DNA from: an uncultured Rickettsiales bacterium
GTDB taxonomy: Bacteria > Pseudomonadota > Alphaproteobacteria > Rickettsiales > SXRF01
Length of the DNA stretch: 61,423 bases
Assembly (NCBI GenBank): GCA_964624555.1
Contig: CAZUXB010000001.1
Span: 1-61,423 of the forward strand
Direction of reading: 5' to 3'
Position 1 is the first letter of the stretch, and every line of letters begins with the position of its first letter. The notes below the pieces were generated by a model. The model had not been told where the DNA came from. It saw nothing but the letters and a program-made list of their open reading frames with translations, and did no database searches. Of this stretch, positions 3,713-45,924 are shown in pieces. A program made the translations under genes and the position numbers.

Positions 3713-4921
3713 CTATTTTTTCTTCTTCATGAACCCAAGAAGACCCTTATCTTTTGATTCCACCTCGAAAGAAAGACTAGGAATCAACTGTTTGGCCAAG
3801 GAATAAAGCGGTTGCATTGCCGCATGTTTTGCATTGGTAATAGAAGGGATATCATTGCCAATTACCATAAACACATCCGGCGTATAGACGATTTTTTCTA
3901 CTACCTTTGCCGTAATCCCTTTTTCAAAATCACCTACGCTCATTTCATTCTTAGGTGCTACCCCCGCCCTGTTCGCCACCACAAGAGGGGGTGACATTTT
4001 GAAGGTATCAACCAACAGGTCACTAATGCGCAACGTATCCCTGAGCGATTGCAGGGAAAGCTCGGCAACAAGTAGTATATTGTGGCATTTTTTCAGGCAT
4101 TCCCTGCCAAATTGGTCAAGATTACGGGGGATATCAAGCACCACAATATCGTATTTATTAGACAACTCACGGAGCAAAGCTTCTGCAGTAAGTTCATTAA
4201 CATGGATTTTTTCTTTAAGTTGTTCTTCTGCGCTTAGCACCCACAGATTCTCATGCGCTTTGTTCATTACCCGGTCAATAAAAAGCTGGTCGATCCTGTC
4301 CGGCTTCTCCAACGCATCACGCAACCCACGGGCTGGCTCTATATCAAGGTTAAGTGACAAAGTTCCTGCTTGGGGATCAATATCTACCAGGGCAATTTTT
4401 TTCCCGGCATGCTCCGCAAAAATCCCAGCCAGATTAAGGGCGATAGTCGACACCCCAACCCCACCACGGGCACCAACCACCCCTATTATTTTGGTAGGCT
4501 CTTTTACTTCTGCAGCGGCTGGCAAAGGCACATCAATCGACTTCAAATAGGCTTTTTCAAGCATATCTTTAGTCAGGGGACGGAGCAGGTAACTGAATAC
4601 GCCAATGTCAGTCAACCAGCAATAGAAGCTATACTCGTTTATTGTGCCGATAATAATGACCTTGGTATCAGGGTCGCAAACATTTGCCAGTGCATCAAGC
4701 AAAGAAGGAGCGGACTCGGCTGAAGGAACCTCTACCAGCAATAATACTGGTGAAGGATGGTTTTTAAAATAGTCGGTAGCGGTGCTGATATCACCCTGCA
4801 TAACACAGGATTCATCCCACTCATGCGCCCTGGCAAATCCTTTCAGGACCTCACGGTCAGCATTATCCTGGCAGAAAGAAAAGAATTTTGGTTTTTTTGC
4901 GGTATCAGCTGGTTGTGCCAT
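3713..4921 (-). CDS. cpaE: CpaE/TadZ ParA/MinD-like pilus localisation ATPase
   Basis: 402 aa. N-terminal receiver-like domain plus deviant Walker A GARGGVGVSTIALNLA. Position between cpaD and cpaF. Confidence 0.85.
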   Translation of the reverse strand: MAQPADTAKKPKFFSFCQDNADREVLKGFARAHEWDESCVMQGDISTATDYFKNHPSPVLLLVEVPSAESAPSLLDALANVCDPDTKVIIIGTINEYSFYCWLTDIGVFSYLLRPLTKDMLEKAYLKSIDVPLPAAAEVKEPTKIIGVVGARGGVGVSTIALNLAGIFAEHAGKKIALVDIDPQAGTLSLNLDIEPARGLRDALEKPDRIDQLFIDRVMNKAHENLWVLSAEEQLKEKIHVNELTAEALLRELSNKYDIVVLDIPRNLDQFGRECLKKCHNILLVAELSLQSLRDTLRISDLLVDTFKMSPPLVVANRAGVAPKNEMSVGDFEKGITAKVVEKIVYTPDVFMVIGNDIPSITNAKHAAMQPLYSLAKQLIPSLSFEVESKDKGLLGFMKKKK

Positions 4922-9238: not shown

Positions 9239-9833
9239 CTACTACCGGCGGAGTGGATAATGATGGGGTTGGAGGATATAGTTTTTCAGAGAAAGCTAGC
9301 AAACGCTGGCGATAAATTTCTACAATTTCATTGATACCGTGGCTACGTGCATCCTGTTCAGAAACATATGTAGAAAAATATTTGTTATTTGGATTGTTAT
9401 AGCTGGTCACATTACTGATAGCTCCTCTATCTACTACCTTATTATCCGATAAACGGATAAGCCTGTAATTTGAAGCTATTGACAGGTTATAACGTGTCGC
9501 TGTTCCGTCACGCGCAACCCCTACCCCGCTTATTGACTGGGCCAATTGCACTTCCAGTTTATAGGTCGGGGCATCAGATGCTCCCACAACGTCTTCCAGC
9601 TTATTTGTAAACTGCCTGACCAGAAACTTACCTGCACTATCATCTATCGTGATATTATTCTCTGATGATGCCCTGCCAGCAGCATTGGCCGCAATTTGTA
9701 TTCCCGCCCGCAAAACAGACTGCCCGGCAGTGGTTGATTCCTTGCTATACACCGCATGAAAACCGCAGGAGCTAAGGAGCAGGCAGACAACAGGCAATAG
9801 GCAACAGACCTTATATTTATGCAATAACAACAT
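9213..9833 (-). CDS. lptE: LPS-assembly lipoprotein LptE
   Basis: 206 aa. Lipobox LLSSCGF. Lies between leuS and holA with overlaps on both sides, which is the conserved synteny. Confidence 0.7.
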   Translation of the reverse strand: MLLLHKYKVCCLLPVVCLLLSSCGFHAVYSKESTTAGQSVLRAGIQIAANAAGRASSENNITIDDSAGKFLVRQFTNKLEDVVGASDAPTYKLEVQLAQSISGVGVARDGTATRYNLSIASNYRLIRLSDNKVVDRGAISNVTSYNNPNNKYFSTYVSEQDARSHGINEIVEIYRQRLLAFSEKLYPPTPSLSTPPVVDETCPKVC

Positions 9834-12369
9834 TCACAATCCTGTTCGGTACAACGATGACCTTGTTTATGGTTTTGCCTTTGAGCAGTTCGCTGATGGC
9901 AGGAACAGCAAGCGCCTCTTCCTCCGCCAGTTTCTTATCTGCATCTTTAGGCAATTCGACAGTCGCCCGTAATTTTCCATTTATTTGTATAGCAATCGTG
10001 ATGCTATCGTCAACGAGCCATTTGCTATCAGCTACCGGCCACGGCCTGTCAGCTATCATATCCTTGTTACCAAGCCGCTGCCATAATTCTTCGGAAATAT
10101 GTGGCATAAAAGGATTTATAAGATGGATAGCGGCGATGATAGCTTCAAGGCGCACCTCTTTCGTAGCGGCAGTAAGCGGAGTATCTTCCACCATGTTGGT
10201 AAGTTCGCGGATACGGGCGATGGCCTTGTTGAAATGGAATTTTTGCAAGTCATCGGTAACGGCAGCGATGGTTTTGTTTGTTGCTTTACGTAAGTTATCA
10301 GTCGTCGGTTGTCGGTTGTCGGTTTTTTCTTCTGACAACTGACCACTGACCACTGACGACTGAACTAAGCGCCACAGACGATTGATATACCGCCACGCCC
10401 CTTCAATACCAGCATCGGTCCATTCCAGATCACGCTCTGGCGGGCTGTCGGAAAGCATGAACAGGCGCGCAGCATCCACACCATAGGTTTCGATGATGTG
10501 GCGCGGGTCGATGGTATTTTTCTTCGACTTGCTCATCTTCTCAATGCGGCCAACAACCACTTCCTTACCGGTAGAAATTTCTACCAGCTTGCCCATATCA
10601 TTTTTAGTAATCTCGTCCGGCGTTACCCATTTGCCTTCGGCATTTTTATAAGTCTCATGCGAGATCATGCCCTGTGTTTCAAGGCGTTTGAACGGTTCTT
10701 CGAGCGCAAGCAAACCACATTTTTTCAGGGCACGGGTGAAGAAGCGCGAATAAAGCAGATGCAACACCGCATGCTCAATGCCGCCGATATAGCAATCCAC
10801 GCCATCTTTGAGCCAGTAATCAAGAACGGTTTTCTCCAGTGGCTCTGCACTCGGCAATGTCGCATAGCGCAGAAAATACCATGATGATTCGAAGAAGGTA
10901 TCGAACGTGTCGGTTTCGCGGCGCGCGGCTTTACTACATTTCGGGCAGCTTACATTTTTCCAGGTCGGGTGATGCTCCAGAGGATTTCCCGGCTTGTCGA
11001 ATTTCACATCTTTCGGCAGCTCGACCGGCAAATCTTTTTCCGGTACCGGAACGGTTCCGCAAGTTTCGCAGTGGATAATAGGTATCGGACAACCCCAGTA
11101 GCGCTGGCGGGAAATACCCCAGTCGCGCAGGCGGTAATTTATTTTTTCCTTGCCAGCGCCAATTTTTTCCAGTTCGACAATGGCTTTTTTCTTTGCAGCG
11201 TCAACCGGCAAACCATTTAGGAAATGCGAGTTAATGGCAACGCCATCGCCGGTATAAGGCAGCGGCTCATCGGTGTTGCCTGCACTCACTACCGGAAGTA
11301 TCGGCAGGTGATATTTGCTGGCAAAATCAAAGTCGCGCTGGTCATGCGCCGGGCAGCCGAATATCGCGCCGGTACCGTAATCCATCAACACGAAATTAGC
11401 AATGAACAGCGGCACTTCGCGCTCTTCAAATGGATGCTTTATTTTGAGCCCGGTATCGAAACCTTTTTTCTCGGCCTTTTCGATGGCTTCCTCGCTGGTG
11501 CCGAGTTGGTTGCATTCAGCAATGAAAGTTGCTAGTTGCTGGTTGCCAGTTGCTAGTGAAGTAGATATCGGATGGTTCGCGGCAATGGCGCAGAATGACA
11601 TGCCGAAGATGGTATCTGGTCGCGTGGTATAGATATCCAGATATTCTTCTTTGCCGGAAATTTTAAGGCGCAAACTCGCACCACTGGATTTCCCTATCCA
11701 GCGATCCTGCATAATGCGCACTTTATCCGGCCATTCTTTGAGCGTGTTGAGTCCGGCGAGCAAGTCGTCAGCGAAATCAGAAATGCGCAGGAACCACTGC
11801 GAAAGCTTGCGGCGCTCGACCAGTGCGCCACTGCGCCAGCCCCTGCCCTCTATCACCTGCTCATTGGCGAGCACGGTTTGGTCGACCGGGTCCCAGTTCA
11901 CTTCCGCTTCTTTGCGATAGGCCAAACCATTCTGCAGAAATTTCAGGAAGAATAATTGTTCGTGCTTGTAATATTCGGGCAGGCAGGTGGCCAGTTCGCG
12001 CGACCAGTCATAAGAAAGTCCGATAAGCTTTAATTGCTCACGCATGGTATCGATGTTGGCCAGTGTCCAGGTTTCCGGATGGGAATTATTCTGGATAGCC
12101 GCATTTTCAGCAGGAAGGCCAAAAGCATCCCAGCCCATCGGATGCAACACATTATAGCCCTGTGCGCGCTTGCTACGGGCTACCACATCACCCAGCGTAT
12201 AGTTGCGCACATGCCCCATATGGATGTTGCCCGATGGATAGGGAAACATCTCCAGCACATAGTATTTAGGCTTTTTGCTTTCCGAGGTTGCGGCAAAGGT
12301 TTTGTTTTTCTGCCAATAATCCTGCCATTTGGCTTCGGTTTCGCGGAAATTATAGCGGGTTGGTTCCAT
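9817..12369 (-). CDS. leuS: Leucyl-tRNA synthetase
   Basis: 850 aa. HIGH-type motif GNIHMGHVRNY, KMSKSKKN, and an editing-domain insertion. Confidence 0.97.
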   Translation of the reverse strand: MEPTRYNFRETEAKWQDYWQKNKTFAATSESKKPKYYVLEMFPYPSGNIHMGHVRNYTLGDVVARSKRAQGYNVLHPMGWDAFGLPAENAAIQNNSHPETWTLANIDTMREQLKLIGLSYDWSRELATCLPEYYKHEQLFFLKFLQNGLAYRKEAEVNWDPVDQTVLANEQVIEGRGWRSGALVERRKLSQWFLRISDFADDLLAGLNTLKEWPDKVRIMQDRWIGKSSGASLRLKISGKEEYLDIYTTRPDTIFGMSFCAIAANHPISTSLATGNQQLATFIAECNQLGTSEEAIEKAEKKGFDTGLKIKHPFEEREVPLFIANFVLMDYGTGAIFGCPAHDQRDFDFASKYHLPILPVVSAGNTDEPLPYTGDGVAINSHFLNGLPVDAAKKKAIVELEKIGAGKEKINYRLRDWGISRQRYWGCPIPIIHCETCGTVPVPEKDLPVELPKDVKFDKPGNPLEHHPTWKNVSCPKCSKAARRETDTFDTFFESSWYFLRYATLPSAEPLEKTVLDYWLKDGVDCYIGGIEHAVLHLLYSRFFTRALKKCGLLALEEPFKRLETQGMISHETYKNAEGKWVTPDEITKNDMGKLVEISTGKEVVVGRIEKMSKSKKNTIDPRHIIETYGVDAARLFMLSDSPPERDLEWTDAGIEGAWRYINRLWRLVQSSVVSGQLSEEKTDNRQPTTDNLRKATNKTIAAVTDDLQKFHFNKAIARIRELTNMVEDTPLTAATKEVRLEAIIAAIHLINPFMPHISEELWQRLGNKDMIADRPWPVADSKWLVDDSITIAIQINGKLRATVELPKDADKKLAEEEALAVPAISELLKGKTINKVIVVPNRIVNVVIA
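10298..10363. repeat. Short-period hairpin element, in frame inside leuS
   Basis: Left arm TCAGTCGTC(GGTTGTC)x2GGTT, 8-nt loop, right arm TGACAACTGACCACTGACCACTGACGACTGA. The outer 9 bp pair perfectly and the rest pairs with G:T wobbles. Translated as SSVVSGQLSEEKTDNRQPTTDN. Confidence 0.85.
11528..11558. repeat. Four tandem degenerate heptamers (GTTGCNN) inside leuS
   Basis: GTTGCTA GTTGCTG GTTGCCA GTTGCTA GTG, translated on the minus strand as LATGNQQLAT. Resembles the arm of the 27185-27250 hairpin. No inverted partner seen nearby. Confidence 0.7.
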
Positions 12370-12371
12370 AG

Positions 12372-12448
12372 TTAGTGGTGAGTGGTGAGTGGCAAGTGGT
12401 GAGTAATTAAATTTTTCTAATCACTTATCACTCGCTACTTACCACTAC
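12372..12448. repeat. Short-period hairpin element filling the DUF3576-leuS intergenic gap
   Basis: Left arm (AGTGGTG)x2 AGTGGCA AGTGGTG AGT. Reverse complement of the right arm is AGTGGTA AGTAGCG AGTGATA AGTGA. About 21/28 positions pair (more with G:T) around a loop of about 21 nt. Confidence 0.85.
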
Positions 12449-18363: not shown

Positions 18364-19420
18364 CCCCGGCTCCACAATCGGTATTTTAGGTGGTGGACAA
18401 CTCGGAAGAATGATGGCCATAGCCGCCGCCGAAATGGGCTATAATGTTCACATCTACTGCCCGGAAAAAGACTGCCCCGCCAGCGAAGTTGCCGCATTTA
18501 CCACTGTCGGTGCGTATGATGACGTGAAGGCTCTGGAGAAATTTGCCGGAAGCGTTGATGTCATAACCTACGAATTCGAGAACATACCTTCTGATCCTAT
18601 ATTTACCATAGCTAAGGTAAAAGATATTTTCCCATCCCCAGAAATATTGGCCGTGTCCCAGCACCGTATCCTCGAAAAACAGGCGGTGAACAAGATGGGC
18701 ATAGCGACTGCGCCATTTAAGGCTGTTTCATCACACGCCGAACTGCTTGCTGCCACTAAAACCCTAGGCTTTCCGTGCATCCTTAAAACCGCAACCATGG
18801 GCTATGATGGCAAGGGGCAATTTCTGCTGCGAGGACCCGAGGACTTTAGTACTCAAGTACTCGATTTCTCAAGTCCTCTAATTCTCGAAGGCTTCGTCAA
18901 TTTCAGCATGGAGATATCAGTCATAGTCGCGCGTGGCAGGAATGGCGATATCAAATGCTACACGCCAGTGCAGAATATCCACAAACACCATATTTTGAGC
19001 GAAACCATCGCCCCCGCGCCGATATCAGAAAAACTGGCAAATGAAGCGGAGAATATCGCAAAAAAAATCGCGCTGGAATTGGGGCTGGTCGGGTTGCTTG
19101 CGATTGAAATGTTCGTGACCAATGACGAAAAAATAATTGTGAATGAAATCGCACCGCGCCCACATAATTCCGGGCATTGGACAATAGACGCCTGCGTCAC
19201 CAGCCAGTTCGAACAAGTCATCCGCGCCGTATGTGGCCTCAAACTGGGAAATCCTGCCCGCCTTTGTGATGCGCGTATGCTGAACCTGATTGGTGATGAC
19301 ATAAATGACTGGGAAAAATACACCAAAACGGAAAACGCAAAATTACATCTCTACGGCAAAAAAGAAACAAAACCCGGCCGCAAGATGGGGCATGTCACAT
19401 TTTTAGGCAGTAGTGAATAG
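18356..19420 (+). CDS. purK: N5-CAIR synthetase PurK
   Basis: 354 aa ATP-grasp protein. Motifs [28 protein letters not shown]. Overlaps purE by 8 nt. Confidence 0.93.
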
Positions 19421-19480
19421 GCATTAGGCCATAGTGATTTTATCTTTACCAATGCCTACTGCCCACTGCCTATTGCCTAA
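19403..19480. repeat. Short-period hairpin element between convergent purK and cobS
   Basis: Left arm TTAGGCA GTAGTGA ATAGGCA TTAGGCC ATAGTG. Reverse complement of the right arm is TTAGGCA ATAGGCA GTGGGCA GTAGGCA TTGG. About 21/30 positions match. The arms cover both stop codons. Confidence 0.8.
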
Positions 19481-22956: not shown

Positions 22957-24141
22957 TTACCTATCAATCTCCCCAAACACCACGTCCATGGTGCCGATGA
23001 TGGCGACCACATCGGCAAGCATGTGGCCTTTGCTCATCATTTCCAGTGCCTGTAAGTGCGCGAAGCCGGGAGCTTTTATCTTGCAGCGGTAGGGTTTGTT
23101 GGTGCCGTCAGCCACTAAGTACACACCGAACTCGCCTTTCGGCGCTTCCACGGCAGTGTAGGTTTCGCCGACCGGCACGTGGTAGCCTTCGCTGTAGAGT
23201 TTGAAATGGTGGATGAGCGCTTCCATCGATTGCTTCATGAGGGCGCGTTTCGGCGGCGCGATCTTCGGGTCGCCGGTAACCACCGGCCCTTCCGGCATCT
23301 GCTCCACGCACTGGCGGATTATTTTCATGGACTGGCGCATTTCTTCCATGCGCACGAGGTAGCGGTCATAACAGTCGCCATTCTTGCCGATGGGTATGTC
23401 GAAATCTAGCTTATCATAGCAATCATAAGGCTGGGCCTTGCGCAAATCCCACGCTATGCCGGAACCACGCAGCATTGCGCCGGAAAAACCCCAATCCTGC
23501 GCCTGTTTGGCGGTAACCACGCCGATATCCACGAGGCGCTGTTTGAAGATGCGGTTCTCGGACAGGAGGTCGTCCACGTCATCGACATATTTCTTAAAAC
23601 CATCGACAAATTTGAGCACGTCTTCATTGAGGCCGCGCGGTATATCCTGATGCACCCCACCCGGGCGGATGTACGCCGAGTGGAAGCGCGCGCCCGATGC
23701 GCGCTCATAAAATTCGATGATCTTTTCGCGCTCTTCAAAGAGCCATAATAGCGGTGTCATTGCCCCAATATCAAGAGCTTGCGTGGTGATGTTAAGAATA
23801 TGGTTTAAGAGCCGGGTGAGCTCGCAGAACATCACGCGGATGTATTGGGCACGCAGAGGCACCTCGCAACCAAGCAGCTTTTCCACCGCCAGCGAGTAGC
23901 AATGTTCCTGCGCCATGGGGGACACGTAATCAAGCCGGTCGAAATAGGGCAGCGCCTGCAAATAGGTCTTATGTTCTATTAACTTTTCGGTGCCGCGATG
24001 GAGCAGGCCGACATGCGGGTCGGCGCGTTCGATCACCTCCCCGTCCATCTCAAGCACAAGGCGAAGTACGCCATGCGCCGCAGGGTGCTGGGGGCCGAAG
24101 TTTAATGTTGTGGTGGTTTTTTGGTTTGCTTCTTGGGTCAT
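22957..24141 (-). CDS. nuoD: NADH-quinone oxidoreductase subunit D
   Basis: 394 aa. Motifs [15 protein letters not shown], and the C-terminal end ...DVVFGEIDR. Confidence 0.97.
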
Positions 24142-24143
24142 AG

Positions 24144-24551
24144 TTAAACTGGTGTTAGTGTGGGTGTGAGTGTTGGTGTATAAGTATCTAATTTCTTCTC
24201 AAGGGCATTAAATAATCCGCCCAGCAGCCTTCCAATTTCATTACTTACGTCCATAATAGATAAATACGTCGCTTCGTCAATATAACCAAGTCGTTTTGCT
24301 ATAATAATTTGCGTCTCGACTTCAGCAAGTGAGCCTTGAGATATGCCTACAAAGCGCATGTACTCTTTAGTGGTGTGCCTTTTACTACCCTCTGCTATAT
24401 TGGAAGGGACAGATATAACTGCTCTACATAGCTGGTCTATCAGCCTGTATTGCTCTTTTTTAGGAAAGTTATCAGTAATTCTATAAATCATTTCTACCAA
24501 AACCATCGACTGCTGCCAAACTTTCAAATCCTGATAACTTTTTACCATCAC
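24144..24551 (-). CDS. Four-helix-bundle protein, 23S rRNA intervening-sequence protein family (Avd-like)
   Basis: Motifs [49 protein letters not shown]. The likely ATG start is at 24548. The C-terminal [11 protein letters not shown] tail is encoded by the repeat arm. Confidence 0.85.
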
Positions 24552-24579
24552 TCACACCCCCACCAGCACTCACACTACC
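24151..24579. repeat. Inverted-repeat-bounded cassette carrying a four-helix-bundle gene (cassette 1)
   Basis: Left arm 24151-24180 is G/T-only, built of about 6-nt units. Right arm 24549-24579 is CACTCA CACCCC CACCAG CACTCA CACTAC C. Positions 24165-24179 pair with 24561-24575 at 14/15. Confidence 0.8.
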
Positions 24580-25124
24580 TAAAGAAACCTATGCATTATA
24601 TAAACATCGACCAGACCCTCGCTGATATGGTCGAAGCCTTTAGGGATGGTACCTACGATCTTGAAACCAATGGATTTCCACAGATCGACCGCGACCTTGT
24701 TGATGCTCACCACAAAGTTAAACTGCATGGCGAGGTAGCCTTTGGAGCGGGCGAAATCAAGCGCGGCATGGCCGAGCGCGCGGGCGATGCCCATGCGCCG
24801 GCAATCAGGATGCACAAGGAAGGAGGCATTGGCGACATGGTGACCACGGCCAGTGCGGTTCGGGCGAACAGCAGCTATCCCTGCCACTTTCCCGTCAATA
24901 TCCGCAACCAGACAATGGGTTCCAGGCGCCGTCATCAGGTAGGCCATCGAACGGTCCGGAGTCATTTCCTCCAGCGTGTAGGAATAGGTTTTGCCTTCGA
25001 TAAGGACATTGCGGAAAATATCGTATATCTCCTCGAAATCCTCCAGACGCGCCGGACGTATGTTGTAAGATGGGTGCGGTTTGGAATTGGGATTCTGGAT
25101 AAAGAATTTGGCAAGCTTCATCAT
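24579..25124 (-). CDS. GNAT-family N-acetyltransferase
   Basis: 181 aa. Acetyl-CoA site motif RRMGIARALGHAALDFARSKGY. Block NFVVSINKVAVDLWKSIGFKIVGTIP resembles phosphinothricin/MSX-type GNATs. Confidence 0.8.
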   Translation of the reverse strand: MMKLAKFFIQNPNSKPHPSYNIRPARLEDFEEIYDIFRNVLIEGKTYSYTLEEMTPDRSMAYLMTAPGTHCLVADIDGKVAGIAAVRPNRTGRGHHVANASFLVHPDCRRMGIARALGHAALDFARSKGYLAMQFNFVVSINKVAVDLWKSIGFKIVGTIPKGFDHISEGLVDVYIMHRFL

Positions 25125-25697
25125 TTAACTGGCCTTCTCATCACCGGGCAGATGGGTCATGCCTTCCCACGGGCTCATATAATCAAAACTGCGGTAAGCC
25201 TGGTTGAGCTTTACCGGCTCATAGACCACGCGCTTCTGCTCCACGTCATAGCGCATTTCGACGTAACCGGTAAGTGGGAAATCCTTGCGCTGCGGATGGC
25301 CTTCAAAACCGTAATCGGTAAGGATACGGCGCAAATCGGGATGCTCGGAAAATAAGATGCCGTACATGTCCCACGCCTCGCGCTCATACCAACCAGCCGA
25401 AGAAAATATACCAACCACCGAAGGTATTGGGGTTTTCTCATCGGTGCAAACACGTACCCGCACACGCATATTCTGTCTTAAACTAAGAAGTAAATAAACT
25501 GCTTCAAACCTTTGTTCTCGCTCAGGAAAATCAACTCCGGCAATGTCGACAAGCTGGGTGAACTGAGTATCCTGCGAATCGCGCAAAGCAGTAAGCAAAG
25601 GCAACAGTTTGTCACCTTTCACGTTTATCACCTGCTCGTCCCGGATGGTCTCGACAGTAGCGCCAAAACCTTCCAGCCATTTATCTTCAAATATCAT
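25125..25697 (-). CDS. nuoC: NADH-quinone oxidoreductase subunit C
   Basis: 190 aa. Motifs [40 protein letters not shown]. Confidence 0.93.
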
Positions 25698-25703
25698 ATA
25701 ACC

Positions 25704-26294
25704 TCACATCTTTTTTAATTGCCACCGCCCGTTCTCGCTTCCGGGAGTGATGAATTCATACAAACCGCAATTGGCGATCTTTTCCTTGTCTGTGCCTTTA
25801 GCAGAGGCCAGTTCCAGCATCCGGCGGATATTGCCGCCGTGGGTGATGAACAGCGGAACCCCATCCCTAATTTCAAGGTGGTTTGCAATGGCCAGTACCG
25901 TGCGCATACGCAAACTTTCCTTCGATTCCTCACCTTCAATAACCCCACCCGAATTTAGTATCCTGCTCCTTTCAACATCTGCCATTCCTTCGGCCGCACC
26001 ATAAGCCCGCTCGTTGATACCGCTTTCTACAAAATGCGGCAAATCACGCAGCGAACTACAGTCGCATATCAGCTTCGCCGTCTCGATGGTTCTGCGCATT
26101 TCGCTGGTAACCACGTAGGAGATGGCTGGCATTATACCAGCCAGCACGGGCTGCATCAACTGCGCCTGCCTTCTGCCCTCAGTGGTAAGCATGGTATCGC
26201 TCCCTTTACCGCTGACCACCTTGTTTTTATTATCCTCAGTTTCCGCGTGGCGCAGCATGTAAAAATTACGCCCGTGAGGAAATGTAAGGCTCAT
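25704..26294 (-). CDS. Histidine phosphatase superfamily protein (phosphoglycerate-mutase-like)
   Basis: 196 aa. Catalytic RHAET motif near the N-terminus and ITHGG near the C-terminus. Its ATG overlaps the nuoB TGA (ATGA). Confidence 0.8.
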
Positions 26295-26833
26295 CTGATT
26301 ATCGTCCCGGTACGGCGGATCTTCTTCTGCAATTGCAGGATGCCATACATCAGCGCCTCAGCAGTTGGCGGGCAGCCGGGAACATAGATATCAACGGGGA
26401 CGATGCGGTCACAACCGCGCACCACCGAATAGGAATAATGGTAATAACCACCGCCATTGGCGCAGCTTCCCATCGAGATCACGTAGCGCGGTTCGGCCAT
26501 CTGGTCATAAACTTTGCGCAGCGCTGGTGCCATTTTGTTGCACAGCGTTCCAGCGACAATCATCACGTCGGCCTGGCGCGGGCTGGGGCGGAATACCACA
26601 CCCAGATGGTCCATGTCATAACGCGAAGCGGCGGCCTGCATCATCTCTACCGCGCAGCAGGCCAGGCCGAAAGTCATCGGCCACAAGCTGCCAGCACGCG
26701 CCCAGTTAGCCAGAGCATCAAACTTGGTAACGACAAAGCCTTTGTCGCTGTATTCTTCCATCACGTCCTTCAGCAAGGCATCCTGATCGGTAGATTTCAA
26801 TGCTACTCCCATTCCAGAGCTCCTTTTTTCCAC
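26291..26833 (-). CDS. nuoB: NADH-quinone oxidoreductase subunit B
   Basis: Motifs [25 protein letters not shown]. The true start is probably the internal ATG near 26812. Confidence 0.95.
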
Positions 26834-27168
26834 TCATAGATAAAGCCGATGGTAAGCACGCCGAGGAAAACCATCATCGACCAGAAACCAGCTATGCCTA
26901 TCTGTTTGAGCGCGATGGCCCACGGGAATAAAAACGCTACTTCAAGGTCGAAGATGATGAACAATATCGCCACCAGGTAAAAGCGCACATCGAACTTGCC
27001 GCGCGCATCACCAAACGCTTCAAAGCCGCACTCATAGGGCGATACCTTCTCCACGTCAGGCTTCTGGCGGCCTATTACCATCGGCGCAAAAAGCATGATA
27101 AGCGCCAGCCCCACCGCGATGGCAATGAACACTAGAATAGGGAAATACTGGGTTACGACTGCGTCCAT
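26803..27168 (-). CDS. nuoA: NADH-quinone oxidoreductase subunit A
   Basis: 121 aa with three TM segments. Motifs YECGFE and [14 protein letters not shown]. Confidence 0.93.
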
Positions 27169-28948: not shown

Positions 28949-29060
28949 AGATGACGAGATTACAAGATGATAAGATGACGAGATTATTAATAGTATATTT
29001 TAAAGAAAAAACACCTATAATTTACTCATTATGTCTAGTCATCCTGTCATCTCGTCATCC
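28949..29060. repeat. Inverted repeat of 8-nt units bracketing the OMT/recJ divergent control region
   Basis: AGATGACGAGATTACAAGATGATAAGA (28949-28975) matches the reverse complement of 29034-29060 (GGATGACGAGATGACAGGATGACTAGA) at about 22/27. AGATGACGAGATTA also occurs twice in direct orientation. Confidence 0.8.
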
Positions 29061-30809
29061 AGTCAGCCGCTTTCCGCGACTGGTCGCCTGTGGCAACTGC
29101 GCGAAGTCGATGAACGACTTGTTGCCGCTATCGCCCGCGAACATGAGTTGCCGGAAATAATCGCACGGGTGCTGGTAGCGCGTGGGATTGACAGCGAAAA
29201 TGTCGAGGATTTTTTACACCCGACCTTACGTAGCGCATTGCCCGATCCATCGCATCTACTGGATATGGACAAAGGCGTGAAACGCATCGCCGATGCGATA
29301 ATTAAAAAGGAAAAGATCGCGATATTCGGTGATTACGATGTGGACGGGGCGACCTCCGCCGCCCTCCTTGCCCGCTATTTCCGGACGGTTGGTGTAAATC
29401 CGGTTTTATATATTCCCGACCGCATGAAGGAAGGTTACGGCCCCAACACCAAGGCGCTGCTGGAATTGCGCAAGCAAGGTGTAAGTGTGGCCATCACCGT
29501 GGATTGCGGCACGCTGGCGTTTGAACCTCTCGCCGAAGCAAAAAAAGCTGGCCTTGACATGATCGTGGTTGACCACCATCTCGGCGAAGCGAAAAAGCCG
29601 GAAGCGGTTGCTATAATAAATCCTAACCGCCTTGACGAAACATCGCAACACCCGCAACTGGCAGCCGTTGGCGTTGCGTTTTTGCTTTTAATCGCCATAA
29701 ATCGTGAGCTAAGAAATCGCCACTTTTTTACCAGCTTACCGGAGCCGGGTATAATGGAATGGCTGGATATTGTGGCTCTGGGAACAATTTGCGATGTAGT
29801 GCCGCTAACCGGTGTCAACCGCGCACTTGTTGCACAAGGTTTAAAAATCATGGCAGGCAGGCGCAACGTAGGAATTGCAACCGTGCTTGATATGGCGAAG
29901 TCGGAAGAAAAACCCAATGTCTATAGCTGCGGATTCATCATCGGCCCGCGCATCAATGCCGGTGGGCGTGTTGGCAAATCGGATCTGGGAGTCAGGTTGC
30001 TTTCCACCGAAGACCCAGAAGAAGCAAAAAATTTAGCAACGGAACTGGAACAATATAACGCCGAGCGCAAAGCCATAGAGGCGATGGTTCTGGAACAGGC
30101 GATGAGCAAAGCCGAAAGCATGGAGGAGAATCTACCGCTGCTGGTTGTCGCTGGACAAGGCTGGCACCCGGGCGTTATCGGTATTGTAGCAGGGCGCTTG
30201 AAAGACAGGTTCCACAAACCGGTAGCGGTGGTTGCGGTGAATGATGGTGTGGGTAAGGCCTCGGCACGCTCGGTAACCGGGGTTGACCTAGGGGCAGCGG
30301 TTATCGCCGCGCTCGAAGAAGGATTGCTGGTAGCCGGTGGTGGACACGCAATGGCAGCAGGATTTACCGTGGAGGAAGGAAAAATTCCAGCACTCACCGA
30401 GTTCCTCAAAACAAAAATGGACGCAAGCATCCAGCAGATAAACGTGCAGAAAAAATTCATGCTTGATGGAGTGGTGAGTATCGGCGGCGCGAATGTGGAA
30501 CTGCTCGCTCATATGGAAAAGCTCGCACCGTTCGGGCAGGCCAACCCTAATTTGCGCCTATGGATTAAACAGGTGGTGAATCTGCGCTCGGATATTGTCG
30601 GCGAGAACCACATAAAAACCCTGCTCATCGACAAGGTGAGCAATACCAAACTCTCCGCGATATCGTTCCGCAGTGTGGGCACAAAACTCGGCGACGCGCT
30701 GCTTGCATCCTACGGCAAAACCATCGACGTGGCCGGGCAACTGCGCCTCAATGAATGGAATGGAAAACAAAGTGTGGATTTGACTATCGAGGATGTGGTA
30801 ATTGCGTAA
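29031..30809 (+). CDS. recJ: Single-stranded-DNA-specific exonuclease RecJ
   Basis: 592 aa. DHH motifs IFGDYDVDGATS, VDCG, VVDHH, and DHHA1 motif GGGHAMAAG. Confidence 0.93.
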   Translation: MSSHPVISSSSQPLSATGRLWQLREVDERLVAAIAREHELPEIIARVLVARGIDSENVEDFLHPTLRSALPDPSHLLDMDKGVKRIADAIIKKEKIAIFGDYDVDGATSAALLARYFRTVGVNPVLYIPDRMKEGYGPNTKALLELRKQGVSVAITVDCGTLAFEPLAEAKKAGLDMIVVDHHLGEAKKPEAVAIINPNRLDETSQHPQLAAVGVAFLLLIAINRELRNRHFFTSLPEPGIMEWLDIVALGTICDVVPLTGVNRALVAQGLKIMAGRRNVGIATVLDMAKSEEKPNVYSCGFIIGPRINAGGRVGKSDLGVRLLSTEDPEEAKNLATELEQYNAERKAIEAMVLEQAMSKAESMEENLPLLVVAGQGWHPGVIGIVAGRLKDRFHKPVAVVAVNDGVGKASARSVTGVDLGAAVIAALEEGLLVAGGGHAMAAGFTVEEGKIPALTEFLKTKMDASIQQINVQKKFMLDGVVSIGGANVELLAHMEKLAPFGQANPNLRLWIKQVVNLRSDIVGENHIKTLLIDKVSNTKLSAISFRSVGTKLGDALLASYGKTIDVAGQLRLNEWNGKQSVDLTIEDVVIA

Positions 30810-31230
30810 GACGTAAATCGTAAGACGTATTAAGAATCTTTTTCCGTTAAAGAATTTCTTAAGCGATAAAGCATACGGCTGATATCTTCTGCCAAGTTAA
30901 GCATCTCCTGATAAATATTTTCAGCCATATAATTGCGTTGATATGCTAAAATGATCTGCGTCTCCAGCTCTGCCAGAGAGCCGTGCGCAATTTCACAGAA
31001 ACGCCTATAATCGGCTTTACTGCCACGAATACTTCCTTCAGCTATATTTGATGCAATAGACACAGCCGCCCCTTGCATCTGATTAGCCAGTGCATAAACT
31101 TCATTTTTGGGGAACTGTGACGTAGCATCGTAAATTTTATTAGCAAGCAGAATGGCTTTATTCCAGACATCGAGTTGCCGATAATTTTTAAAAGCCATAT
31201 TTTAGCCGCCTTACGTCTTACGATTTACGT
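30806..31230. repeat. Inverted-repeat-bounded cassette carrying a four-helix-bundle gene (cassette 2)
   Basis: Left arm is GTAAGAC GTAAATC GTAAGAC GTA (30806-30829). ACGTAAATCGTAAGACGTA is the perfect 19-nt reverse complement of TACGTCTTACGATTTACGT in the right arm (31210-31230). Confidence 0.9.
30830..31198 (-). CDS. Four-helix-bundle protein, 23S rRNA intervening-sequence protein family (Avd-like)
   Basis: 122 aa. Motifs YRQLDVWNKA, FPKNEVYALANQMQGAAVSIASNIAEGS, GSLAELETQIILA. I estimate roughly one third identity to the 24144-24551 protein. Confidence 0.85.
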   Translation of the reverse strand: MAFKNYRQLDVWNKAILLANKIYDATSQFPKNEVYALANQMQGAAVSIASNIAEGSIRGSKADYRRFCEIAHGSLAELETQIILAYQRNYMAENIYQEMLNLAEDISRMLYRLRNSLTEKDS

Positions 31231-31240
31231 TCTACATCCC

Positions 31241-32026
31241 TTACTGCGCTGTCCAGCCGCCATCCATGGTGATGATCTCACCGGTCATGGAATCGCCGTT
31301 ATCACCACAGAGGAACGCGATCATCGCGCCGATATTTTCTGGCTTGATAAAACGCTTGTTAGGCTGTTTTTCACCGAGAAGCCTGGCGGTTGATTCCTCA
31401 ACGCTGATATTCTGGGCTTTGGCTTTGTCTTCAATTTGCTTCTGCACCAACGGCGTGTGTACCCAGCCCGGGCAGATGGCATTGCAGGTAATGCCCGACT
31501 CCGCCGTTTCCAGCGCCACCACCTTGGTCATACCCACGATGCCATGTTTTGCAGCAACATAGGCTACCTTGTTAGTGGAAGCGACGAGGCCATGCACCGA
31601 GGCGATGTTTATGATGCGCCCGAATTTATTTTTACGCATCACCGGTATCGCCGCTTTGCTGGCGTGGAAGGCTGCAGAAAGGTTGATGGCGATGATAGAA
31701 TCCCATTTATCTTCGGGGAATTCCTCCACCGCAGCGGTAAACTGGATACCGGCGTTATTGACCAGAATATCCACGCTGCCGAGCTTGCTTTCGCAATCAG
31801 AGACCATCTGTTTGATGTCGGCGGGCTTGCTCATATCGGCACCATTATAAAACACTTTCACACCGTATTTCTGGGCAAGATTGTCGACTTCGGCATCTAT
31901 CGCCGCCTTGTCGCCCATGCCGTTCACCAGTATGTTGCAGCCTTCACCCGCCAGTACGTTGGCAATGGCGAGCCCTATGCCGCTGGTTGAACCGGTAACG
32001 ATCGCGTTTTTTCCTTTAAGTGCCAT
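31241..32026 (-). CDS. bdhA: 3-hydroxybutyrate dehydrogenase (SDR family)
   Basis: 261 aa. Motifs TGSTSGIGLAIA, NNAGIQ, S...YVAAKHG. The substrate assignment rests on overall resemblance only. Confidence 0.75.
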   Translation of the reverse strand: MALKGKNAIVTGSTSGIGLAIANVLAGEGCNILVNGMGDKAAIDAEVDNLAQKYGVKVFYNGADMSKPADIKQMVSDCESKLGSVDILVNNAGIQFTAAVEEFPEDKWDSIIAINLSAAFHASKAAIPVMRKNKFGRIINIASVHGLVASTNKVAYVAAKHGIVGMTKVVALETAESGITCNAICPGWVHTPLVQKQIEDKAKAQNISVEESTARLLGEKQPNKRFIKPENIGAMIAFLCGDNGDSMTGEIITMDGGWTAQ

Positions 32027-43716: not shown

Positions 43717-45924
43717 CTACGCCATATAATCCGGCAGCCAGCTTTCGTTAACCTTTCTGAGTTCTCTAACCTCTACCGAACTTCCAGCAACGCTAAGTTT
43801 TCCGGCTTCGGTTTTACCAATAACAACTGCTGTAACACCAACAGTTTTTGCAGCCTTAATTATATCCGAAGCATCTTTAGCGGTTAGAATATAGCGGCCC
43901 TGATCTTCACCAAACCAAAAAGCGACATCTCCAGTAACAGTTATATTTGCTCCTATTCCATCCCGGTATGTCATCTCAGCAATGGCGACAAGCAGGCCAC
44001 CATCGGACACATCATGGCAGGCAGTTATTTTGCCAGCCTGAATCAGCGAGCGCACGAAATCGCCATTGGCACGTTCGGCTTTTAGGTCAACCGGTGGCGG
44101 AGCGCCCTCTTCACGGCCTAAGATTTCGCGCAGGTAAAGGGATGCTCCCAAATGGCCTTTAGTTTCGCCAATAACGATGATATCTTCACCAGTAGCAACA
44201 AAGCTGTTTCCGACACGTTTTGTAACATCTTTGAGAATTCCCACGCCGCCGATGGCCGGAGTCGGGAAAATCGCTACACCATTGGTTTCGTTATAGAGCG
44301 ACACATTGCCAGAGATAATCGGGTAATCCAGCGCCCGGCACGCTTCCGCCATACCCTGCAAACACCCTACTATCTGACCCATAATTTCCGGCTTCTGCGG
44401 GTTGCCGAAATTCAGGCAGTTGGTGATGGCCAGTGGCGTGCCACCCACGGCGGTGATGTTGCGCCATGTTTCGGCTACAGCCTGCTTGCCGCCTTCGATG
44501 GGGTCGGCGTAGCAATAGCGTGGTGTGCAGTCGGTAGTTATCGCAAGCGCCTTGTTCGTGCCATGCACACGCACTATTGCACTGTCACCACCGCTACGCG
44601 CAACCGTATCATTACCAACCTGAGAATCATACTGTTCGTATATCCAACGCTTCGATGCGAGGTCGGGACATTGGATTAAGGTTAACAATGCAGTTGTCAG
44701 CGGTCGGTTGTCAGCGGTCAGGAAAGCTTTTTCTGATCGCTGATCGCTGACCGCTGACCGCTTAATTTCATACGGCCTGTCATACACCGGTGCGTCGGTG
44801 GATACTGGCGCTATCGGCATGTCGGCAACCGTTTCGCCATTCATTTTCAGCACAATATTTCCGGTGTCGGTGATTTTTCCGATGGTGGCAAAGGCCAGTT
44901 CCCATTTTTCAAACACCTTGCGTGCAATATGCTCTTTTTCCGGTTTTATTACCATGAGCATGCGTTCCTGCGATTCGGAAAGCATGATTTCATACGGCGT
45001 CATTCCGGTTTCGCGCATCGGCACTTTATCAAGCCACATCTCAATGCCGGTGCCGCCCTTCCCCGCCATTTCCAACGACGATGAAGTGAGGCCCGCCGCG
45101 CCCATATCCTGAATGGCGAGAATAGTGTCTGTCTGCATCAGTTCGAGGCAGGCTTCGATGAGAAGTTTTTCTGTGAATGGATCGCCCACCTGCACGGTCG
45201 GGCGTTTTTCTTCCGACGCATCGTCGAATTCAGCGGAGGCCATGGTCGCACCGTGAATACCGTCGCGCCCGGTCTTGGAACCGACATAGACCACGCTGTT
45301 GCCAACACCGGCAGCTGCCGAGTAAAATATCTTGTCCGTCTGCGCGATACCAACGGTCATGGCGTTGACCAGAATATTTCCGTTATAGGAGGAATGGAAA
45401 TTGCACTCGCCACCAACGGTTGGAACACCAACGCAATTACCGTAGCTGCCAATTCCAGCAACCACGCCGGAGAGCAGATGTTTGGTTTTCGGGTGCGATG
45501 GGTCGCCAAATCGCAGCGCGTTCATATTCGCAATAGGGCGCGCGCCCATAGTGAACACGTCGCGCAGAATTCCGCCCACGCCGGTAGCAGCACCCTGGAA
45601 CGGTTCGATGTAGGATGGGTGATTGTGCGATTCCATTTTAAATATCGCCGCCTGCCCGTCACCGATATCAATGACACCAGCATTTTCACCGGGGCCGCAA
45701 ATGACCCACGGCGCTTCGGTAGGCAGGCCGCGCAGGAGCTCGTGCGCGATTGTATAGGAGCAATGCTCACTCCACATCACCGAGAAAATACCAAGCTCGA
45801 CAAGGTTCGGTTCGCGACCCAATGTTTTCAGCACACGCTGGTATTCCTCGGGCGTTAATCCATGTTGGGCAACGATTTCATCAGTGATTTTTTGTGTGGT
45901 TTTTTTTGCAGTAGCGCTTTGCAT
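43717..45924 (-). CDS. purL: Phosphoribosylformylglycinamidine synthase subunit PurL
   Basis: 735 aa. Motifs SEHCSY, ESHNHPS, and duplicated AIR-synthase-like domains. Confidence 0.95.
44691..44761. repeat. Short-period hairpin element, in frame inside purL
   Basis: Left arm GTTGTCA GCGGTCG GTTGTCA GCGGTCA GG. Reverse complement of the right arm is (GCGGTCA)x2 (GCGATCA)x2 G. Several pairing registers are possible. Translated as [22 protein letters not shown]. Confidence 0.85.

Follow-up and report, generated by a model that had tools for sequence, protein, structure and literature searches.

In the 61,423-nucleotide stretch of an uncultured Rickettsiales bacterium analysed here (GenBank assembly GCA_964624555.1, contig CAZUXB010000001.1, positions 1 to 61,423; referred to below as the window), the spacer between the stop codons of recJ and bdhA is one unit of approximately 430 nt and nothing else: an open reading frame (ORF) for a 122-aa protein, framed by two inverted arms that are built from tandem heptamers. 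What kind of element is this unit, and do its arms and its ORF belong together? Judged from its sequence, the recJ/bdhA cassette has the anatomy of an intervening sequence (IVS) of the kind found in 23S rRNA genes in every structural respect save location, as it occupies an mRNA spacer. The association of such genes with heptamer arrays, which proved to be family-wide, is more interesting than the occurrence of a single IVS-type element in an mRNA spacer.

A cassette with the anatomy of an intervening sequence

The cassette and the two genes between which it lies comprise the following features:

31241-32026, minus strand: bdhA, 3-hydroxybutyrate dehydrogenase, the co-oriented upstream host gene (TIGR01963, 350 bits, above the curated cut-off)
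31212-31235, minus strand: 5' arm (upstream on the sense strand), GTAGAAC GTAAATC GTAAGAC GTA, approximately 3.5 heptamers with GTA every 7 nt
31199-31211, minus strand: leader from arm to start codon, 13 nt, AGGCGGCUAAAAU; the same leader is also given as AGGCGGCTAAAAT
30830-31198, minus strand: ORF of 122 aa, PF05635/TIGR02436 (23S rRNA-IVS protein, 'four helix bundle protein')
30806-30829, minus strand: 3' arm (downstream on the sense strand), complement of the 5' arm
29031-30809, plus strand: recJ, the convergent downstream neighbour (TIGR00644, 543 bits, above the curated cut-off)

A sequence-only reading of this stretch had described a 122-aa gene between the two stop codons, co-oriented with bdhA and with arms abutting the neighbouring stops, and this description is accurate: 5 nt separate the bdhA stop codon from the 5' arm, the 3' arm begins immediately past the TAA of the 122-aa ORF, and the recJ stop codon falls within the last heptamer of that arm. 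The same reading had reported a perfect 19-nt inverted match between heptamer-built arms; the match was recovered by a complementarity search and the heptamers by Tandem Repeats Finder. The arms (30806-30829 and 31212-31235) are 92% complementary over 24 nt, with a perfect core in which 30811-30829 pairs with 31212-31230; Tandem Repeats Finder detected a period of 7 with 3.6 copies at 30805-30829, and a pattern search located GTA every 7 nt, four times on each arm. Among inverted repeats with a spacing of 150-1500 nt, the 19-nt match is the longest in the window, and the arm 24-mer is single-copy there even when three mismatches are allowed.

Shuffled controls, proposed with the sequence-only reading as a check on arm complementarity, gave nothing comparable, as none of 100 Markov shuffles reached 19 nt. 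In a 450-nt RNA spanning the element, the arms are paired in both the minimum free energy and the centroid fold (z = -6.3, with 0/100 shuffles equally stable), while on the sense strand the arms by themselves fold with -30.4 kcal/mol (z = -6.7). The further reservation that the arms might be part of a generic repeat occurring without regard to these genes holds in part: gene-less heptamer hairpins do occur in the window, but they employ other units and the arm sequence itself is unique. With 24 nt the arms exceed the 20 bp expected as a minimum for a stem enclosing an IVS, and, being head-to-tail 7-nt units in at least two to three copies within a spacer, they also correspond to the short tandemly repeated repetitive (STRR) type of sequence, which is mostly intergenic.

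The combination of these parts is known from Coxiella burnetii, whose IVS is a selfish element of 428-444 nt in helix 45 of the 23S rRNA (PMC4990558). It is closed by a terminal stem of 28 bp; its loop holds an S23p ORF, and its 5' arm contains two to three tandem heptamers GACAGAT whose copy number varies between strains (PMC4990558). The stem of this IVS is cut by RNase III in vitro, and the 5' cut lies at the start of the first heptamer (PMC4990558). The sequence-only reading was right in its observation, while the identity of the unit with this classical 23S rRNA IVS anatomy (PMC4990558) had escaped it.

The encoded protein is assigned to the same family with confidence, matching PF05635 with an E value of 3.6e-37 and 127.3 bits (cut-off 33.8) over model positions 1-105 of 106, and TIGR02436 with 118.9 bits (cut-off 24). 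Among solved structures, the closest is that of XCC0516 from Xanthomonas campestris (PDB 2GSC, E 7e-20), a homopentamer of four-helix bundles as cited in PMC4990558. A first homolog search returned 2,661 homologs, and since 17 columns, including N51-I-A-E-G55, S74, E77 and Q81, are invariant in an alignment of 37 sequences, the PF05635 gene is under purifying selection. Searches of Pfam and NCBIfam produced only PF05635 and Avd-like matches and no recognisable nuclease, recombinase or transposase domain, and no PADLOC defence-system model matched. The Avd-like matches are weak, at 33.7 bits for PF22296 (bAvd; cut-off 40) and 30.7 bits for NF033474 (cut-off 80). Identity with Avd of a diversity-generating retroelement (DGR) was rejected on account of these scores, both below the model cut-offs, and because no reverse transcriptase was found among the called neighbours AstB, TrbC-like, YkuD, BdhA and RecJ, a 218-aa ORF and the remainder of the window being unscanned.

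A weak Shine-Dalgarno (SD)-like AAGG/GGCGG, of putative function, can be read in the 13-nt leader. A scan for promoters and terminators returned nothing above shuffle expectation, and the minus-strand interval from bdhA to the ORF is free of any such site; Rfam likewise detected no known RNA family and no rRNA within the 61-kb window. Both PF05635 genes of the window have a GC content of approximately 40% (approximately 41% for the 122-aa ORF) versus approximately 53% in the flanks.

The second of these genes forms part of a companion cassette in the nuo operon, where nuoC and a GNAT gene lie on one side of it and nuoD on the other:

24144-24577, minus strand: cassette 1, with a 135-aa PF05635 paralog at 24144-24551 (E 1e-38), 44% identical to the 122-aa protein
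approximately 24152-24188 and approximately 24533-24577: arms of cassette 1, built from a GTGTGAG-type unit and paired in the predicted fold

Both window proteins had been proposed to be members of one family, and both indeed belong to PF05635 and carry NIAEGS and GSLAE.ETQ; their identity, put at about one third by eye, is in fact 44% over 117 aa (BLASTP E 2e-34). The two arm pairs had been called unrelated, and their units do differ, yet both are short-period G/T-rich arrays like those of the rest of the family. The fold of cassette 1 is weaker than that of the recJ/bdhA cassette (z = -1.9), its 3' arm codes for the TLTPTLTPV tail of its own protein, and this protein belongs to another clade (43-50% identity) than those of the GTA-core cassettes described below. 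No reverse transcriptase is present among its called neighbours NuoC, GNAT and NuoD. The nuoA-B-C-D operon (22957-27168, minus strand) contains three co-oriented interruptions in all: an ORF of 196 aa (25704-26294) between nuoB and nuoC, and the GNAT acetyltransferase gene (24579-25124) together with cassette 1 between nuoC and nuoD.

Arms that accompany the gene to other sites

The closest homolog of the 122-aa protein (68% identity) is encoded in a metagenomic locus, L137, directly downstream of a bdhA ortholog whose product is 70% identical to BdhA, meaning that the two proteins have diverged at approximately the same slow pace (68% versus 70% identity). The arms of L137 read GTAAGTG GTAAGTC GTAGGTG and CACCTAC CACTTAC, where those of the window carry GTAAGAC and GTCTTAC; the GTAAG core is common to both, and complementary substitutions on the two arms have altered the last two bases of the heptamer. 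The presence of the cassette at the same bdhA position, combined with complementary arm changes, shows that it is old and that pairing has been kept. A scan of genomes by RecJ, aimed at an empty or hairpin-only site, yielded 55 loci, among which the nearest genomes (79% and 62% RecJ identity) have no bdhA downstream of recJ, and the nearest bdhA locus, L137, is already occupied by a cassette.

Proteins of the same clade (53-76% identity) are also encoded between cysH and cysD (two metagenome-assembled genomes, MAGs), between flgF and flgG (two MAGs) and between fliF and fliG, in each instance within a cassette co-oriented with its operon. Across seven clade cassettes at four operon sites, GTA occupies unit positions 1-3 in 32/32 units, while positions 4-7 vary; the units were framed by eye and their 7-nt spacing was confirmed by pattern search. 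As the GTA core is common to four different operon sites, the arms belong to the element and travel with the ORF. The arm core motif is, in the cassettes compared, one that tracks the protein clade, and the invariant GTA shows a constraint on sequence that goes beyond base pairing. In 4/4 clade loci checked, the GC content of the PF05635 gene is lower than that of its flanks by 7-14 points. Inspection by eye of the window, L137, L138 and L141 revealed no direct repeat outside the arms that would indicate a target-site duplication.

The insertion of the ORF into a pre-existing host hairpin was considered as a candidate origin and is ruled out by the common GTA-core heptamer across different operon sites. 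Small stand-alone GIY-YIG genes, another small and possibly selfish class inside operons, are present in the flg and cys operons of the MAG lineages that also carry PF05635 cassettes (L141 and L142, approximately 4330-4650; L156, 231-581).

The layout was further assessed in 80 metagenomic loci encoding relatives with 39-57% identity, which represent the best tblastn matches to one subfamily and not a random sample of PF05635. For the 75 unrelated loci usable in a flank test, the left flank of one locus was paired with the right flank of another as a control, and the 99th percentile of this mismatched-flank control was exceeded by the flanking inverted repeat in 44. Among arrays passing the score threshold, the period was 7 in 39/43 upstream and 39/48 downstream, the threshold being reached by only 11/292 control windows from the same loci. 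The heptamer unit is specific to the locus (AGGTAAC, CAAGTTG, AGTGGGC, AGTTTCG and AGTCGAG, for example), elements with significant arms mostly measure approximately 400-580 nt, and 0-50 nt separate the arm ends from the start and stop codons; tandem units may be mis-registered in these ungapped arm alignments. The claim of the sequence-only reading that the layout of inverted repeat, ORF and inverted repeat is kept, and hence selected instead of recently duplicated, while proteins and arms diverge is supported by these 44/75 loci and by L137.

Neighbouring genes, as delineated by a simple longest-ORF caller, follow a consistent pattern: in 56/61 loci the gene that precedes the ORF has the same orientation, compared to co-orientation in 98/135 other adjacent gene pairs of these loci (p = 2e-4). 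Median gaps to the neighbours are approximately 50 nt, which leaves just room for the arms, and in 37/44 loci the G-rich array precedes the ORF on the coding strand. The relatives are hosted by cys, flg, fli, nuo and acc operons. No locus among the 80 is situated in an rRNA gene, Rfam identifying a few tRNAs only. One locus, L108 (187-906), carries its PF05635 cassette (443-790) between two co-oriented tRNA genes, that is, inside a tRNA operon, which represents a third kind of structured-RNA transcript to host the element.

Heptamer arrays without a gene and in other bacteria

Heptamer hairpins are not confined to the flanks of PF05635 genes. In L138 (as well as in L139 and L140), a GTA-core heptamer hairpin with a 49-nt loop and without an ORF spans the cysD/cysN junction (4239-4348 in L138; dG -60 kcal/mol, z = -11), and the cassette with the same core lies one spacer upstream of it; the 3' arm of the hairpin falls inside the called cysN coding sequence. 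The window contains 10 period-7 arrays, versus 0.9 (maximum 3) in dinucleotide shuffles, and four or more heptamer or octamer hairpins that lack an ORF, in the form of close inverted pairs, whose units are unlike those of both PF05635 cassettes:

10304-10363: (GTCGGTT)x3 and (CTGACCA)x4.6, -39 kcal/mol, plus strand
44693-44762: GTCAGCG/CTGACCG units, -52 kcal/mol
28949-29065: octamers AGATGACR with a 52-nt AT-rich loop, -45 kcal/mol, minus strand
approximately 19400-19480: TAGGCAG-type units

The hairpin at 28949-29065 lies just upstream of the recJ start (29031) and overlaps it. That at 10304-10363 is in frame within leuS (9817-12369, minus strand), where it codes for ...QSSVVSGQLSEEKTDNRQPTTDN..., a segment of the linker that precedes the anticodon-binding domain; it resembles the in-frame palindromic elements of Rickettsia. 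Rickettsia palindromic elements (RPEs) are non-tandem palindromes of 100-150 bp without an associated ORF. Two period-7 arrays have no obvious inverted partner nearby: (AGTTGCT)x4.4 at 11527-11557, inside the leuS coding sequence and encoding seemingly ordinary LeuRS sequence (...LATGNQQLATFIAEC...), and (AGTGGTG)x4.4 at 12374-12404, 5 nt past the start-codon end of the leuS ORF.

Homologs retrieved from plasmids by tblastn came mainly from Nostoc, Calothrix and Trichormus, and in three of these records the arms are again heptamer arrays: (TAGGGAG)n and (CTCCCTA)n on pNe_5 of Nostoc edaphicum, (CAGGAGT)n and its complement on pNPUN01 of Nostoc punctiforme, and (TTAGCTG)n in Calothrix PCC 7716. 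Heptamer arrays like these are known from the same genera as STRR repeats. The XCC0516 orthologs of Xanthomonas reside between accB and accC and are co-oriented with both (L149, L150 and L152, approximately 1430-1930), with an upstream array GGGAATC GGGAGTG GAGAATC GGGAATC and a downstream inverted array of the ATTCCC type. Start calls for these orthologs differ by record (109 versus 129 aa), the longer call including the upstream array.

Arrays of these kinds have been reported independently of the gene. Rehm et al. counted GGGAATC in 186 arrays of X. campestris, 70 of them arranged as convergent pairs, and offered no explanation for them, the XCC0516 gene being unmentioned (PMC4692102). Calothrix heptanucleotides are cited in PMC4692102, and other dispersed heptamers include GGGGAYT of Nostoc (PMC4692102) and TAACTGA of Beggiatoaceae (PMC4679880).

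Mode of action, rival explanations and known systems

We regard it as roughly an even chance (probability approximately 0.5) that the cassette is a non-ribosomal member of the IVS family, its arms and ORF being one unit that has settled in operon spacers and that operates in the following manner. The cassette would lack a promoter of its own and would be transcribed by read-through from the co-oriented bdhA, a reading favoured because no promoter- or terminator-like site intervenes and because co-orientation is observed family-wide. In the transcript the arms would pair to form a 24-bp stem, thereby closing the whole ORF into a loop, and host RNase III may cut this stem, by analogy with the homologous Coxiella IVS. 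A small mRNA would be released by such cleavage from the host transcript, and operons and rRNA alike could tolerate the insertion. A sequence-specific factor would in addition read the arrays, since the stem model leaves the period, the invariant trinucleotide and the asymmetric arrays unexplained; the best candidate is the encoded Avd-like protein, likely pentameric by analogy with XCC0516 and putatively able to bind the arrays, as it is the sole product of the element, its relative Avd binds RNA stem-loops (as homologs do in DGRs; bioRxiv 10.1101/2023.10.23.563531) and the arm core tracks the protein clade. Read-through, RNase III cleavage and protein-heptamer binding are steps that we infer by homology of anatomy.

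A number of observations weigh against this reading. RNase III is not known to need a 7-nt period or a conserved trinucleotide, so that the stem model fails to explain the heptamers. Some arrays are also very asymmetric (110 versus 17 nt, for example), more than a stem would need. Selection for pairing in the sense RNA should favour G.U over A.C among the stem mismatches, yet G.U shows no excess (50 versus 43, p = 0.53), nor is there a difference in duplex energy between the sense and antisense strands (p = 0.32); the absolute values of these energies look too large, and only the paired sense/antisense comparison was used. As neither mismatches nor energies reveal a strand asymmetry, complementarity could be maintained at the DNA level, and we consider this result neutral to mildly against an RNA model. 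Finally, S23p of Coxiella is judged by the authors of that study to be probably untranslated and decaying (PMC4990558), a state that fits poorly with the strong protein conservation in the present family.

Several of the same observations would be expected if the hairpins were mobile as DNA, in the manner of repetitive extragenic palindromic (REP) sequences and their REP-associated tyrosine transposases (RAYTs), or REPINs. The PF05635 protein would then recognise them in trans and promote their spread, copy-number change or maintenance, and the ORF-less hairpins would be non-autonomous copies. The approximately 186 dispersed Xanthomonas GGGAATC arrays with their 70 inverted pairs (PMC4692102) can be read in this way, the same unit flanking the XCC0516 orthologs, as can the ORF-less hairpin of L138 with the GTA core of the cassette one spacer away, the excess of period-7 arrays and the ORF-less hairpins in the window, the tracking of protein clade by the conserved core across different insertion sites, the mismatches without strand bias and the low GC of the genes in all four clade loci. 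However, the protein has no nuclease, recombinase or transposase domain and no PADLOC match, no target-site duplication is visible by eye at the cassette ends, the clade cassettes are old and vertically inherited at fixed sites instead of recently mobile, the ORF-less hairpins of the window use units unlike either of its PF05635 cassettes, and a DNA transposon would not need the strong co-orientation with the host. On balance we consider a DNA-level element of this type unlikely, though it is the main rival.

Less probable again, and in our opinion quite improbable, is an autoregulatory operator or translational switch, in which the arrays would serve as iterated binding sites or as SD and anti-SD mimics and neither processing nor mobility would be involved. 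The SD-like units of many upstream arrays (CAGGAGT, TAGGGAG, AAGGAGT), complemented downstream, the closeness of the arm ends to start and stop codons, the G-rich upstream array in 37/44 loci and the binding of RNA stem-loops by Avd homologs in DGRs (bioRxiv 10.1101/2023.10.23.563531) are consistent with such a switch, but the window clade has arms (GTAAGAC and relatives) that bear no likeness to an SD sequence, and such a switch would leave unexplained the ORF-less hairpins, the arrays inside the leuS and cysN coding sequences, the rRNA-borne copies and the function of the protein. We attach very little probability to an orphan DGR Avd or to an inverted repeat that flanks an ordinary small gene by chance. 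The former could draw only on the two weak Avd-model matches, both under their cut-offs, and no reverse transcriptase is found among the called genes around either cassette and no template or variable repeat was found; the latter is excluded by the shuffle controls and by replication in 44/75 loci.

The IVS-family reading bears on more than the single locus. IVSs with S23p ORFs, the heptamers of the Coxiella IVS (in passing) and dispersed heptamer repeats are already known, yet IVSs have so far passed for a peculiarity of a small number of 23S rRNA genes, and the far more numerous non-rRNA PF05635 genes have been annotated without context or function. Since non-ribosomal copies keep the IVS anatomy, the rRNA cases would look like one niche of a much larger family. 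The cassettes split conserved operons (nuoC|nuoD, accB|accC, cysH|cysD and flgF|flgG) and may add RNA processing sites that affect operon stoichiometry. We tentatively put forward, as a proposal that is more likely to fail than to hold, that PF05635 proteins are dedicated trans-acting partners of heptamer-array hairpins, widespread and similar in function to the RAYT/REPIN pairing though unrelated in mechanism. If this is true, the reach of this partner system extends from operon spacers and rRNA helices even into coding sequences, and the over-representation of heptamers in the form of STRR in heterocystous cyanobacteria, GGGAATC in Xanthomonas and TAACTGA in Beggiatoaceae, so far unexplained, would find its explanation. 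Two literatures that do not cite each other are linked by the present results, one on S23p, IVS and Avd-like proteins, including the XCC0516 structure, and the other on unexplained heptamer repeats, and both the role of the protein and the reason for the build-up of 7-nt repeats in bacteria become testable in tractable organisms. In the literature covered, from which most subscription journals are absent so that a prior description is possible, we found no paper tying non-rRNA PF05635 genes to inverted heptamer arrays and no statement associating the heptamer repeats of Nostoc, Calothrix or Xanthomonas with PF05635.

In comparison with known systems, the cassette shares with the DGR protein Avd a fold family, the pentameric four-helix-bundle barrel that in Avd binds nucleic acid, whereas its score lies below the Avd cut-offs, neither a reverse transcriptase nor a template/variable repeat pair neighbours it, and its gene stands alone among varied neighbours. 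The RPEs are likewise hairpin repeats that occur in Rickettsiales-like genomes, sometimes in frame within genes as is the leuS hairpin, but they are non-tandem and have no ORF, and the likeness is one of description only. With REP sequences, or the bacterial interspersed mosaic elements (BIMEs) that they form, and RAYTs, the family seems to have in common a gene flanked by inverted short repeats that also occur as many ORF-less hairpins in operon spacers, as in Xanthomonas and, with one such hairpin, in L138, each gene clade having its own repeat sequence. In contrast, RAYTs are homologs of HUH/Y1 transposases and REPs are single imperfect palindromes, where PF05635 proteins are four-helix bundles with no known catalytic motif and their arms are tandem heptamer arrays. 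The dispersed heptamer repeats resemble the arms in being tandem 7-nt units of which one strand is often G-rich; they are transcribed, lie mainly between genes and frequently form convergent pairs, and arrays of that kind flank PF05635 genes in Nostoc, Calothrix and Xanthomonas. They have, however, been published without an associated gene, PF05635, S23p and IVS being unmentioned there (PMC4692102, PMC4679880), and the arm sequence of the window is single-copy there and not a genome-wide consensus unit.

The closest likeness in anatomy is to the 23S rRNA IVSs of Coxiella burnetii and Leptospira, elements that are regarded as selfish or horizontally acquired. The present cassette differs in being located between protein-coding genes, outside helices 9, 25 and 45 of the 23S rRNA, in its heptamer (GTAAGAC versus GACAGAT in Coxiella), and in the good conservation of its protein, where that of Coxiella is described as decaying and probably untranslated; RNase III cleavage has been demonstrated in vitro for the Coxiella IVS and is predicted for the present cassette. 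Common to both are (i) a homologous PF05635 ORF located in the loop; (ii) the size, at 430 nt versus 428-444 nt in Coxiella; and (iii) complementary ends that form a stem of 24-28 bp, with tandem heptamers in the 5' arm.

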